Assembly (NCBI GenBank): GCA_040776945.1
Contig: JAXGZN010000001.1
Coordinates: 192,001 to 256,000 of the forward strand
Direction: 5' to 3'
Origin: Methanomassiliicoccaceae archaeon
GTDB lineage: Archaea; Thermoplasmatota; Thermoplasmata; Methanomassiliicoccales; Methanomassiliicoccaceae
Length of the DNA: 64,000 nt
Shown piece after piece: positions 49,564 through 53,598 of the stretch. Both the position numbers and the translations under genes were made by a program. How positions within the stretch are numbered: position 1 is the first letter of the stretch; each line of letters begins with the position of its first letter. The notes beneath the pieces were generated by a model. The model saw only the letters and a program-made list of their open reading frames with translations. It ran no database searches and was not told the origin of the DNA.

Positions 49564-50688
49564 CTATTCCTTCATCCTGCCTCCGTCCCTGGACCCCTGG
49601 ACGAACGCTCGGAAGTTCGCTTCGGACATCATGGGAGGGCATTCGCAGGCCATTGAGGCGAAGAAGCCGTTCTTGAAGTGCTTGTACCTCATGGCATCCT
49701 TGTATGCCTGTTCGTATATCTGCTGGGGCGTGCCATTGAACGCGAGGATGGTGTCGGTGTTGCCCATTAGGCAGCACTTGCTCTCGTAGATCTTGGCGGC
49801 CTTGATCAGGTCGAACGGTTTCTGGCCGTCATAGGCGATGTGCATTACCGAGCCGGTCGGGAACGGCATGTCCTCGCACAGGTGGTAGTCCTGGCCGTGG
49901 TCGCCGCATTGATGGTAGAATATTCCGGTCGTACCGGAGCCGATGCCTATGATCTTGTTCAGAGCATCCTTCATGTAGTCGGTGGCGAACTCCTTGCACT
50001 GGTCGACGGACATCGTCGAGCTGTTCGCCAGCAGGGTGGCGCAGGATGTTTTGAACGGCTTTCCACCGTAGAGGTCGCTCACCGCCTCGCAGGCGTTGAC
50101 GCAATGCACCACGACCTTCCTCATGATGCTGTGCACGAGCTCCGGTTCCTGGAAGCACCACATCAGCATGTTCTCCGGCGAGACCCAGAACGAACCGATG
50201 ACGAACGGCTCGTAGATGAACTGCCATGGTTTGTAGCCCTTGCCTGAGTATGCCTCCGCCGCCTTCAGTCCCCTGGCGTGCAGCGCCATGGTCGGGCCCT
50301 TTGCCAGCTCCTCCGTCGACAGCGGCTCGATCTTATCGGCCTTGTCCACCGTATCCGCCGGGTAGGTCAGTATCCCGGGGGCGGGCATGAGGCCGGTGGG
50401 CATCTTTATCGTTCCGCCGTAGTCCTCGCTCCAATAGACCGAATAGTTCCAGTTGAGGTACGGCACGAAGCTGTGCATCCGGGCGGTGTCCAGCTGCCAG
50501 GCGATGGCCTTCTCCGGCTCCGTATAGTACTCGTACAGGGAGTGGCCGCAAGCGGTGGCCGCGTAACCGCCGACCAGCGGAGCTATGGGCGCCTGGTCGT
50601 GGTCCCTGCCCACGAACATCCTCTTGATGTTCTCCCTCTGCCGATCGTAGTTCTCTCTCGTCCCGGGGGGCAGCGATTCCCAGCTCAT
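49564..50688 (-). CDS. MtaA/CmuA (UroD-fold) methylcobamide:CoM methyltransferase-family protein
   Basis: EPELVH, H-x-C zinc motif (HQCG), MGN.D, GTP and C-terminal CECP. Confidence 0.8.
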   Translation of the reverse strand: MSWESLPPGTRENYDRQRENIKRMFVGRDHDQAPIAPLVGGYAATACGHSLYEYYTEPEKAIAWQLDTARMHSFVPYLNWNYSVYWSEDYGGTIKMPTGLMPAPGILTYPADTVDKADKIEPLSTEELAKGPTMALHARGLKAAEAYSGKGYKPWQFIYEPFVIGSFWVSPENMLMWCFQEPELVHSIMRKVVVHCVNACEAVSDLYGGKPFKTSCATLLANSSTMSVDQCKEFATDYMKDALNKIIGIGSGTTGIFYHQCGDHGQDYHLCEDMPFPTGSVMHIAYDGQKPFDLIKAAKIYESKCCLMGNTDTILAFNGTPQQIYEQAYKDAMRYKHFKNGFFASMACECPPMMSEANFRAFVQGSRDGGRMKE

Positions 50689-51087: not shown

Positions 51088-51259
51088 TGGGGGCACTGGG
51101 ATTTGAACCCAGATCAGCGGGTTTCCACCGGACAGGGAGCGACCCTGTCGGAATCGTACGGGTCAACGCTCCAGTCAATCATCACTGGTCAGCAAACCCG
51201 TTCTCTTTCATTCCCGTATAACTGGAGCCCGCGAGGATACCGAACTACCCCATACCCCC
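51088..51259 (-). tRNA. tRNA-Trp(CCA) with 89-nt canonical intron (51123-51211) carrying a box C/D guide
   Basis: GGGGGTA/TGCCCCC acceptor, GCGGG-CTCCAG|A-CCCGC; the intron has CTGA, GTGATGA and GACTGGAGC complementary to its own anticodon loop. Confidence 0.93.
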
Positions 51260-51270
51260 ACTGTTCAGCA

Positions 51271-51378
51271 TTATACCTTGCGCATCTTCTGCGCGCGCTT
51301 GCGGCGCCTCATCTTCTTCTTGCGCCACTTCCATCTTTGATTGCCTCGCTTCTTCCAAGCGCGTGAGCTTCTCTTCAT
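51271..51378 (-). CDS. rpl41e: Ribosomal protein L41e-like
   Basis: MKRSSRAWKKRGNQRWKWRKKKMRRRKRAQKMRKV; KWRKK.MRR motif; GAGGAG RBS. Confidence 0.85.
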   Translation of the reverse strand: MKRSSRAWKKRGNQRWKWRKKKMRRRKRAQKMRKV

Positions 51379-51445
51379 CAGTACTCCTCAGTGCTATATT
51401 CTTGCCCTGAATCATCGGGCCCATATGAAGGTTTGGATTGGGAAA

Positions 51446-51565
51446 TGGCGGGCTCGTCGGGAATTTCGCCTTCTCCAGAAGGTTTCGAACCCGAGACCAC
51501 TGACTTGCTTCCATGGCAGGCCACGGTAGAAGGCCAGTGCTATATCCAGGCTAAGCCACGAGCCC
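51446..51565 (-). tRNA. tRNA-Arg(UCU) with two introns (37/38 at 51506-51526; 59/60 at 51463-51483) and encoded CCA
   Basis: GGGCTCG/CGAGCCC acceptor followed by GCCA; removing two 21-nt BHB introns restores CTGGC-CTTCTAA-GTCAG and TCGGG-TTCGAAT-CCCGA. Confidence 0.9.
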
Positions 51566-51715
51566 GTAAACCCTCGATAGGGCTTTTGCAATAAAAGGTT
51601 TGGCCCACTGCCATGAGCACACACGCGGACCGAATTTGGCCTGGGCCCCCGCCATCGCCCTGGCCGCAACAAATAATGATATTGGCTTGAACGGCCTTTC
51701 CAGCCCGAAGATCAT

Positions 51716-52279
51716 ATGGATGTGAGCGACGCTGTTCAGCACCGGAGGGCCTTGCGGACGTTCGACCCCCGGCCAGTGGAGGAGGAGAAGGTCCGTGCCA
51801 TGATCGAGGCCATGCGATTGGCGCCGAGCTGCAATAATAACCAACCCTGGAGGCTGGTGGTCTGCTCAGGGAGCGTCCTGAGCAAGGTGAAGGAGTGCCT
51901 GAACCGGGGCAATGTCTGGGCTACCGCGGCGCCGCTGATAATGGTCCTTGCCGCCAAGCCGTCAGATGATTGCCGGCTGAACGAAGGCCGCGACTACTAT
52001 CTGTTCGGTTGCGGCATGGCCGTCGGCCAGATGCTCCTCCAGGCCACCGAGTTGGGGCTGACCGCGCATCCCATCGCGGGGTACGATCCGGTCATGGCCA
52101 GAGTAGTTTTAGGCATACCGAACGACTATGTGGTCATCGCGTTCATCATCTGTGGTTACCCCGGCGAGGACGACAGCCTCCTATCGGACAGGCAGAAGGT
52201 ACAGCAATTGCTGCGACCGGAGAGGCGACCGATCGGGCACGATTTCTTCCTGGATGCCTGGGGCCGCCCCATATCGTGA
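51716..52279 (+). CDS. Nitroreductase family protein
   Basis: RRALR.F, APSCNNNQPW and LQATELGL motifs. Confidence 0.92.
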   Translation: MDVSDAVQHRRALRTFDPRPVEEEKVRAMIEAMRLAPSCNNNQPWRLVVCSGSVLSKVKECLNRGNVWATAAPLIMVLAAKPSDDCRLNEGRDYYLFGCGMAVGQMLLQATELGLTAHPIAGYDPVMARVVLGIPNDYVVIAFIICGYPGEDDSLLSDRQKVQQLLRPERRPIGHDFFLDAWGRPIS

Positions 52280-52298: not shown

Positions 52299-53189
52299 TC
52301 ACAGCCCGAGCAGTCGCCGCATGTTCCCACCCAGCACCTTGGCCTTGGTATCTTCGTCAGCCCACGGCCGATCCCTGACAAAGTTCAGCCACATCTCCGA
52401 TGGGTAGGATAGGTCGAACAGCGGGAAATCGGTCCCGAAGGAGGCGCGGTCGGGAACCTTCTCCGCCACCTCCTTGAGCCGGGACATGCAGGTGTCGGGA
52501 TCGGAGGGCAGCCATCCCTGGAGGGCGGAGATGTCCGTGAAGCAGTTCGAATGCTTAGCACATAGCTCATAGGTCTCAGAACGATACTTCCCGCCGATAT
52601 GGGCAATGACCACCCGGAGGTCTGGATAGCGGTGCAGTACCTCATCGTAGAACGATGGCCTGGTGTATTTCTCGTCCAAAGGTCCCCAGGCCGCGCCGCC
52701 ATGGGTGATCACCACGAGCCCTAGGTCATCGGCATGCTCCCAGAACCTCTGAACCCGTTCCTCGTTGGGGTACCAACCGGTGGCTGGATATACCTTGATC
52801 CCGGGAGCATCGTACTTCTTCACAAACTTCTCCATGATGCTGATGGCCCGGTCCCCTCGCTGAGGATCGATGCCCACGAACGGAATGATGCGGTCTCGGT
52901 AAGGGGCCGCGCCCTCGAAGGCCCAAATATTGTACTGTTCGATGTCCACCCTTGCCTGGTCCACGAGGTTGTAATCGATGGGCAGCACCACCGCTCGGTC
53001 CACTTTGCCGGCGGACATCATCTCCAGCACCTTGTTGACGTCCACGCCATATTCAGGCCATACTTCCTCGGCGTCGACCTCCCAGTCGAAGAGGTCCTTG
53101 AGGGCGTTCAGCGGTTCCAGATAGGCCCGCACCATGGAATCGGGGAGGTGCTCCCTCATCCATATGTGAACATGGCTGTCGATTATCAT
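52299..53189 (-). CDS. Amidohydrolase (Amidohydro_2 family)
   Basis: IIDSHVH, GIKVYP, THGG, AHIGG and FGTDFP motifs. Confidence 0.9.
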   Translation of the reverse strand: MIIDSHVHIWMREHLPDSMVRAYLEPLNALKDLFDWEVDAEEVWPEYGVDVNKVLEMMSAGKVDRAVVLPIDYNLVDQARVDIEQYNIWAFEGAAPYRDRIIPFVGIDPQRGDRAISIMEKFVKKYDAPGIKVYPATGWYPNEERVQRFWEHADDLGLVVITHGGAAWGPLDEKYTRPSFYDEVLHRYPDLRVVIAHIGGKYRSETYELCAKHSNCFTDISALQGWLPSDPDTCMSRLKEVAEKVPDRASFGTDFPLFDLSYPSEMWLNFVRDRPWADEDTKAKVLGGNMRRLLGL

Positions 53190-53280
53190 CGCCTGTGCAT
53201 TCACCGTCGACCATTTAACGGTGTCTAGCCATACCGCTTGATTAATTATCCTCGGCCTCGATAGCGTTTCATGTGATGCA

Positions 53281-53598
53281 ATGAAGATGATTGTCCGCTT
53301 GACCTCCGAACTTCCGCCTGGCAAGATGACCACTGTGGACGTCCTGGGGCGGACGCTGCTAGTGGCCAATGTCGATGGTGCCTTCTTCGCGATGGACGGA
53401 ATATGCTCTCATGGCTTCGCCGACCTGTCCCGCGGACGACTGGACGGCTTCATGGTCGAGTGCCCAAGGCATTTCGCCCGCTACGATGTACGCGACGGCA
53501 AGCTCGTGCGCCGCCCTGTTGATGCCGAGGGACATGCCTTTGACCTCCGCTCCTATCCTGTCACCGTGGACAAGGACCGCATCATTGTGGACATATAG
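53281..53598 (+). CDS. Rieske-type [2Fe-2S] ferredoxin
   Basis: CSH...L..G......ECPRH...YDV..G. Confidence 0.9.
   Translation: MKMIVRLTSELPPGKMTTVDVLGRTLLVANVDGAFFAMDGICSHGFADLSRGRLDGFMVECPRHFARYDVRDGKLVRRPVDAEGHAFDLRSYPVTVDKDRIIVDI

Follow-up and report, generated by a model that had tools for sequence, protein, structure and literature searches.

A tRNA-Arg(UCU) gene with two strict bulge-helix-bulge introns, at 37/38 and in the T-loop at 59/60, in a Methanomassiliicoccus-like methanogen

In euryarchaea whose tRNA-splicing endonuclease is an alpha4 or alpha'2 enzyme, tRNA genes are described as carrying a single intron at the canonical site, while non-canonical and multiple introns are said to go with (alpha-beta)2 or epsilon2 enzymes only (PMC4090602, PMC4033280). 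Position 59/60, in the T-loop, is a published non-canonical intron position (PMC4090602), and introns at this site have been documented in the tRNA-Cys and tRNA-Pro of ARMAN-2 (PMC3239211). Here we describe a tRNA-Arg(UCU) gene that has one intron at the canonical position 37/38 and another at 59/60, each within a strict bulge-helix-bulge (BHB) motif. The gene lies in a stretch of 64,000 nucleotides (nt) from a Methanomassiliicoccaceae archaeon (assembly GCA_040776945.1, contig JAXGZN010000001.1, positions 192,001 to 256,000, forward strand), which we call the window and in which position 1 is the first letter. We are confident that the locus is functional and serves this Methanomassiliicoccus-like methanogen as its sole tRNA-Arg(UCU) gene, with both introns presumably spliced by EndA and RtcB. 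It is not a new mechanism, but a further case of the known archaeal multi-intron BHB tRNA genes.

Gene structure and predicted spliced product

The gene is encoded on the minus strand, and its parts are as follows.

51446..51565, minus strand: whole pre-tRNA-Arg(UCU) gene, 120 nt, with G1 at 51565 and the 3' CCA encoded at 51448..51446
51527..51565, minus strand: exon 1, comprising the 5' strand of the acceptor stem, the D-arm, the 5' strand of the anticodon stem and positions 32-37 of its loop (CTTCTA), with the anticodon TCT
51506..51526, minus strand: intron 1, 21 nt, at the canonical position 37/38, strict BHB
51484..51505, minus strand: exon 2, 22 nt, comprising A38, the 3' strand of the anticodon stem, the variable loop, the 5' strand of the T-stem and positions 54-59 of the T-loop (TTCGAA)
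51463..51483, minus strand: intron 2, 21 nt, at T-loop position 59/60, strict BHB (GGG/TTCG/AAA/CCTTCT..AGAAGG/CGAA/ATT/CCC)
51446..51462, minus strand: exon 3, 17 nt, comprising T60, the 3' strands of the T-stem and acceptor stem, the discriminator G and CCA
51457..51494, minus strand: T-arm BHB, with the T-stem, a central helix of 4 base pairs (bp; TTCG/CGAA), two 3-nt bulges, a 6-bp inner helix and a GGAG loop
51500..51537, minus strand: anticodon-arm BHB, with stem CTGGC/GTCAG, central helix CTTC/GAAG, bulges TAC and CAA, and inner helix CGTGG/CCATG
51589..51596, minus strand: TATA-like box TTTTATTG, read from the sequence, 24-31 nt upstream of G1 and with an A-rich stretch before it

Both junctions have the order helix, 3-nt bulge, 4-bp helix, 3-nt bulge, helix, and the predicted cuts fall symmetrically within the bulges. 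When each cut is placed after the second base of the bulge, two 7-nt loops result, CTTCTAA in the anticodon arm and TTCGAAT in the T-arm, and with both introns taken out ARAGORN recognises the remaining 78 nt as tRNA-Arg(tct), in a regular cloverleaf. ARAGORN makes no call on the unspliced gene or on the gene with intron 1 alone removed, and removal of intron 2 alone results in a spurious call, tRNA-Glu(ctc). An earlier, sequence-only reading of this DNA had proposed a tRNA-Arg(UCU) with two 21-nt introns at these positions; every string that it quoted is present on the minus strand, and the strict motifs and restored loops that it predicted agree with the junction geometry and with the cloverleaf of the spliced gene. 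In the minimum-free-energy fold of the unspliced 120 nt (-51.9 kcal/mol, z = -2.72, 1 of 200 shuffles as stable), the acceptor stem and the predicted T-arm BHB form unaided. The TATA-like box is likely the archaeal promoter of the tRNA, judging from the usual archaeal promoter spacing.

The gene escapes standard tools, as that reading had anticipated. ARAGORN and Rfam (at the gathering threshold) listed three other tRNAs in the window and missed this one, and at a relaxed threshold RF00005 scored the unspliced gene at 15.6 bits versus a cut-off of 29, in a partial match whose 3' half is wrong. We scanned both strands of the 2.17-Mb genome for strict BHB motifs, defined by an outer helix of 3 bp, a central helix of 4 bp and an inner helix of 3 bp, with G-U pairs allowed and introns of 10-130 nt, and obtained 31,737 candidates. 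Removing each candidate and running ARAGORN on the product gave four junction-spanning calls (with the strict spacer option) or six, among which only the tRNA-Arg(UCU) locus and a tRNA-Asn(GUU) with a canonical 37/38 intron of 21 nt are not re-calls of neighbouring or complete tRNA genes; the remainder (Lys ctt, Asp, Leu, Trp) were rejected as re-calls of neighbouring or intact tRNAs. Since BHB-like motifs are common by chance, the case for the gene is built on the cloverleaf, on the relatives and on the RNA contig, and not on the motif count.

The host genome, in two contigs, has 59.6% G+C and encodes a tRNA-Pyl. Its tRNA inventory comprises 37 genes by ARAGORN run without introns, 44 by ARAGORN run with introns, and 40 RF00005 matches above the cut-off. 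A second tRNA-Arg(UCU), which the sequence-only reading had suggested looking for, is found by neither program, ARAGORN having been run with and without introns; the only Arg anticodons are UCG, GCG and CCU, an Arg 'ccg' call of ARAGORN being an intron-bearing tRNA-Trp and a second 'gcg' call being tRNA-Leu(CAA). AGA is used 1,457 times, or 4.8 per 1000 codons, in the 527 open frames of at least 400 codons, some of which are perhaps spurious. Without the tRNA-Arg(UCU) gene, the genome seems to have no decoder of AGA. In addition, no tRNA-Arg(CCG) was found in the genome by ARAGORN, RF00005 or BLAST with the other Arg tRNAs, and CGG codons stand at 15 per 1000; they are read either by tRNA-Arg(UCG) or by the product of a further cryptic gene.

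Conservation in the order and RNA contigs

We searched the DNA of 41 genomes, drawn from the host itself, its genus, its family and its order. The tRNA-Arg(UCU) gene is present in 38 of them, complete in 36 and cut by contig ends in two (L015, L039); the DNA search did not find it in G006 (67% complete), G032 (97%) and G039 (94%). When the same splice rule is applied, ARAGORN calls a tRNA-Arg(tct) in every one of the 36 complete orthologues, whose introns are distributed as follows.

Both introns: 23 of the 36 complete orthologues
T-loop intron only: 4 of 36 (L026, L036, L037, L038)
Anticodon intron only: 4 of 36 (L028-L031)
Neither intron: 5 of 36 (L032-L035, L040)

The T-loop intron is present in 27 of the 36 complete orthologues of the order, and the two-intron gene is old. 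Among the orthologues, intron 1 measures 20-29 nt and intron 2 20-25 nt. All nine orthologues without the T-loop intron carry the T-loop TTCGAAT, identical to the predicted spliced loop, which argues that the spliced form is the conserved product. In the eight same-genus genomes with a complete gene, all 78 exon positions are identical and all eight retain the T-loop intron, while the intron loops vary; in a comparison of 38 loci, 26 have an exon 1 that is 100% identical. The 3' end of intron 2 is fixed as CGAA because T54-G57 must pair with it (the T-loop is the palindrome TTCGAA), and the rest of the intron drifts with compensating changes. Its first base is variable (A or T), as is its last (T, C or G), and exon bases A58, A59 and T60 are invariant.

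Both motifs show covariation. In the T-arm alignment (A1; 27 sequences, 23 of them distinct), paired cells make up 94.8%, and changes on both sides are seen in 8 of the 15 pairs, including all six in the inner helix of the intron. The covariation score of A1 is reached by none of 500 shuffles, a count that is not a probability because the sequences are related, and when the partners are slid the paired share falls from 94.8% to 62% or less. In the anticodon-arm alignment (A2; 27 sequences), 96.0% of cells are paired and all five inner-helix pairs are altered on both sides, and here too none of 500 shuffles attains the covariation score, with the same reservation about related sequences. As far as sequence comparison goes, the weight for the predicted splice sites is borne by the register test and by the intron-less orthologues.

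In genus g3 of family f1 (L032-L035), both tRNA-Arg(UCU) introns have been lost at once, and the T-loop intron of tRNA-Lys(UUU) is retained. The joint loss would be consistent with a copy of the spliced RNA having taken the place of the gene.

Part of the window is represented in 17 RNA runs, and four of these, from four studies (X1, X5, X8 and X10), were compared as assembled contigs. A contig of run X8 (416 nt, depth 12.6), which covers 51250-51532, is short of exactly 21 letters at 51463 and shows no difference otherwise. It retains intron 1, the 3' trailer and the small gene downstream, and is identical to the window at all 262 other aligned bases, including intron 1 and the spacer, both of which differ in the closest genome, L004. 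Had the flanking CGAAA repeats slipped against each other, 19 bases would be gone, and not the 21 that are absent. As exon 2 is only 22 nt long, the 31-mers from which this contig was assembled must join the spliced T-loop junction both to intron 1 and to the trailer, and molecules with the spliced junction, or such DNA, therefore existed. We read the contig as a splicing intermediate. The sequence-only reading had named mature reads that keep the T-loop insert as an outcome that would tell against it; the X8 contig is without exactly that insert, in one of the four runs and at the level of contigs.

No contig of the four runs extends over 51556-51565. The contigs of X1 and X5, from two studies, both end at 51513, in the loop of intron 1, where L004 and the window differ; at this shared end the assembly most likely broke on a strain polymorphism, and the RNA does not end there.

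Splicing enzymes and competing explanations

The host genome has one EndA gene (G000:C1:721264-722316), which encodes 351 amino acids with two N-terminal and two catalytic-type domains. The protein is 84-90% identical to Methanomassiliicoccus sp. proteins, and among solved structures its best relatives are M. kandleri 5X89, a fused enzyme (E = 1e-40), and the A. fulgidus alpha'2 enzyme 1R0V (E = 2e-29, residues 41-334). Its architecture is that of the alpha'2 homodimer type; the host EndA is neither split into alpha and beta subunits nor a three-unit epsilon protein. In the alignment with A. pernix alpha (3P1Z_B), ten residues of that chain around K44 stand opposite gaps. Presumably Lys44 of A. 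pernix alpha is the conserved loop lysine, and we take the ten residues around it to be the crenarchaeal specific loop. The host EndA is, by this alignment, without the crenarchaeal specificity loop. The sequence-only reading had linked such introns to the broad-specificity endonucleases of the known hosts, and in this respect it does not hold for the present genome, whose EndA is typed as alpha'2 without that loop. The genome also has an RtcB gene (G000:C2:480716-482020, 591 bits).

These elements suggest the following pathway. The gene would be transcribed, from the putative promoter, into a 120-nt precursor with two short introns, and each intron would fold with the flanking exon bases into a strict BHB, in the anticodon arm for intron 1 (37/38) and in the T-arm for intron 2 (59/60). 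We infer that the homodimeric alpha'2 EndA would recognise the BHB itself, whatever its position in the tRNA, and cut after the second base of each 3-nt bulge, and that RtcB would ligate the exons, so that the anticodon loop would again read CUUCUAA and the T-loop UUCGAAU. Presumably the same enzymes act on intron 1 and intron 2. The T-loop intron may be removed first, because the sole spliced RNA contig is without the T-loop intron and retains the anticodon intron and the 3' trailer. Position-independent cleavage of the BHB fits a result on another member of the Thermoplasmata, Ferroplasma, since its homodimeric EndA cuts minimal BHB substrates (PMC8707768). Cultured members of Methanomassiliicoccus make both the order of splicing and the position-independence of EndA directly testable.

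Several observations weigh against this pathway. The reviews limit alpha'2 enzymes to strict BHB motifs at the canonical position (PMC4090602, PMC4033280). The T-loop junction is spliced in only one of the four RNA runs, the contigs of X1, X5 and X10 retaining intron 2, and in the contigs of the four runs neither removal of intron 1 nor a mature tRNA is seen. In the minimum-free-energy fold of the precursor, the anticodon arm is in a register slightly off the BHB. Furthermore, the X8 contig might derive from the DNA of a strain without the intron, as RNA libraries can carry DNA. In that event the gene would still be spliced as proposed, with the X8 contig an intron-less DNA variant and no longer direct RNA evidence. 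Intron loss at the DNA level has occurred several times in the order, nine of 36 orthologues being without the T-loop intron, and X8 has no second contig with the intron. We consider such an origin unlikely, because the contig matches the window everywhere else, including in intron 1 and the spacer, which vary even in L004; moreover, the T-loop intron is kept in all eight complete same-genus orthologues, and the retention of intron 1 and trailer in the contig is as in a processing intermediate.

Were the gene functional but the T-loop insert retained as an enlarged T-arm hairpin, with the anticodon intron alone spliced, the three runs of four whose contigs keep the insert would be accounted for, as would the restriction of alpha'2 enzymes to the canonical site that the same two reviews describe. 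This is very improbable in view of the X8 contig that lacks exactly those 21 bases, of the strict 3-4-3 BHB conserved with covariation, and of the nine orthologues that carry the predicted T-loop in place of the insert. An insert at 59/60 would also destroy the elbow formed by T-loop and D-loop. Finally, a decaying tRNA pseudogene with two insertions, giving no functional tRNA, would go uncalled by ARAGORN and Rfam and score as poorly with RF00005 as this locus does, and its BHB-like motifs might be among the many thousands that the genome has by chance. We regard decay as extremely improbable: the locus is the sole Arg(UCU) gene of a genome that uses AGA codons, the exons are unchanged throughout the genus while the introns vary, both BHB helices stay paired through compensating changes, the gene is found in nearly all genomes searched, and RNA contigs cover the locus.

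T-loop introns in the class, flanking genes and known systems

The host genome has further introns of this kind. The tRNA-Lys(UUU) gene at G000:C1:643700-643843 (minus strand; start approximate), 144 nt long, has a D-loop intron and a T-loop 59/60 intron and is missed by both ARAGORN and RF00005; its T-loop intron is kept with compensating changes in the relatives G004 and G012. One D-loop intron each is present in tRNA-Thr(CGU) (G000:C1:801413-801511, plus strand) and in tRNA-Leu(CAA) (G000:C2:1055485-1055594, minus strand), the latter mislabelled Arg(gcg) by ARAGORN. For the Leu precursor, it seems that D-loop bases pair alternatively with the 3' strand of the D-stem to make the outer BHB helix. 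The strict BHB scan missed these other non-canonical introns because their outer helices are imperfect, and the annotation gap seen for tRNA-Arg(UCU) likewise affects tRNA-Lys(UUU), tRNA-Thr(CGU) and tRNA-Leu(CAA). A looser T-loop pattern gave six matches in the host genome versus six in the control, of which only those in Arg(UCU) and Lys(UUU) are real; for the candidate at C2:673216-673253, no deletion tried yields a credible tRNA.

Such introns bear on published inventories. A 2014 comparative paper found no tRNA-Lys in M. luminyensis and put this down to missing sequence (Borrel 2014; PMC4153887); cryptic introns are the likelier cause. A 139-nt tRNA-Lys(UUU) of Candidatus Methanomassiliicoccus intestinalis is a new prediction of tRNAscan-SE 2.0 (PMC8450103), and the listing of that gene indicates that this program is able to detect such genes in the order.

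To assess the class Thermoplasmata, we searched 401 sampled genomes for the T-loop intron signature GGTTCGAA-N13-30-CGAAANTCC. The signature is present in 248 of the 401 versus 2 of 401 with the reversed control; the 248 of 401 include the unpublished genomes G135 and G244, and leaving out those two together with G333 gives 246 of 398. From the matches listed, 20 loci in 13 genomes were picked by hand to spread over families, and cutting out the predicted T-loop intron gave an ARAGORN tRNA at the expected spot in 19 of these 20. Seven of the loci need no further intron to be removed: Lys CUU, Gln CUG (two), Arg UCG (two), Gly UCC and Asp GUC. By eye, the two-intron arrangement of Arg(UCU) recurs in L044, from another family; Lys(UUU) with D-loop and T-loop introns is seen at L049 and L050, and Arg(CCG) with a T-loop intron at L048 and L060, from two other families.

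The sequence-only reading had called the arrangement unusual for Thermoplasmata. This stands if the reviews are taken as the measure, and fails if the genomes are, given the 27 of 36 orthologues, the tRNA-Lys(UUU) of the host and the 248 of 401 genomes of the class. The Thermoplasmata genomes thus contradict the reviews, with strict 59/60 BHB introns occurring alongside a loop-less alpha'2 EndA, and with a signature that is both order-wide and class-wide.

The signature is absent from all 43 f24, all eight f19, all six f25 and all six f37 genomes (63 of 63). The EndA proteins of these four families match the host EndA weakly, with E = 1e-5 to 1e-30, versus 1e-37 or better elsewhere, and most families with a full-length two-repeat EndA carry the signature; f13 (0 of 10) and f23 (0 of 5) break the pattern. 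The comparison by family includes the unpublished G135, G244 and G333. A co-evolution of enzyme and intron within the class, in which EndA divergence goes with absence of the T-loop intron, is only a lead, as kinship confounds it.

Taken together, these results raise the possibility, which we put forward tentatively and hold to be rather doubtful in this full form, that 59/60 BHB introns are an old class-wide trait of Thermoplasmata, present in many isoacceptors, among them Arg, Lys, Gln, Gly and Asp, and handled by an ordinary, loop-less alpha'2 EndA, with T-loop splicing perhaps an obligatory first step that gates end-trimming and removal of the anticodon intron. If this were true, textbooks would be mistaken in tying intron position to endonuclease architecture, and strictness of the motif alone would be decisive.

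The genes that flank the tRNA have no evident tie to it.

49564-50688, minus strand: URO-D family protein
51716-52279, plus strand: nitroreductase
52299-53369, minus strand: amidohydrolase

We take the URO-D family to be the family of methylcobamide:CoM methyltransferases. A very basic open frame of 35 amino acids, MKRSSRAWKKRGNQRWKWRKKKMRRRKRAQKMRKV (51271-51378, minus strand), begins 68 nt after the tRNA. It has a conserved A/T-rich promoter-like element in front, its start is conserved in relatives, and RNA contigs cover it in all four runs. The frame has no Pfam or NCBIfam match; we take it to resemble ribosomal protein eL41. An Rfam match to the C/D-box RNA sR43 at 51352-51417 (minus strand; 10.1 bits versus a cut-off of 45) was set aside as chance because it overlaps the start of this frame, and an RF00005 match at 51088-51129 (minus strand; 14.1 bits, E = 6) was also taken as chance.

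Our literature search, which did not extend to subscription journals, found no paper on these introns in Methanomassiliicoccales or Thermoplasmata. The available parts of PMC4153887 and PMC9499178 contain no description of them, the text of PMC8450103 does not treat the lineage, no statement on tRNA-Arg(UCU) was found there or in its available supplement, and the lineage goes unmentioned in the available supplement text of PMC5829648.

Among the described systems, the tRNAs of ARMAN-2 resemble the present gene in having a protein-spliced BHB intron at exactly 59/60, in carrying more than one intron per gene and in being missed by ordinary finders (PMC3239211). ARMAN-2 differs in having a three-unit epsilon2 EndA with a specificity loop of its own and 56% of its tRNA genes disrupted, whereas the host EndA is alpha'2 without the crenarchaeal loop and the second intron of tRNA-Arg(UCU) is a canonical 37/38 intron. 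The Thermoproteales and other Crenarchaeota likewise have non-canonical positions that include 59/60, up to three introns per gene and a BHB at each junction (PMC4090602 and PMC4033280, citing Sugahara 2008 and Marck and Grosjean 2003). Unlike the present case, in which the motif is strict and the enzyme of the euryarchaeal alpha'2 type, they have an (alpha-beta)2 EndA with the crenarchaeal specific loop, together with many relaxed motifs (hBH, HBh').

The pre-tRNA-Glu(UUC) of Methanopyrus kandleri is, like our gene, euryarchaeal and combines a canonical intron with a non-canonical one (PMC5829648). M. kandleri EndA, however, is an (alpha-beta)2 heterotetramer, and the non-canonical intron is a relaxed HBh' motif in the D-loop, which the alpha'2 EndA of A. 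fulgidus cut poorly (PMC5829648); the non-canonical motif of tRNA-Arg(UCU) is strict. The tRNA-Lys(UUU) of M. intestinalis belongs to the same order and is alike in being about 65 nt too long and in having been missed by older tools; it is another isoacceptor, and the supplement gives no intron positions (PMC8450103). Intron 1 of tRNA-Arg(UCU) is an ordinary canonical archaeal 37/38 BHB intron, from which intron 2 differs by its site in the T-loop.

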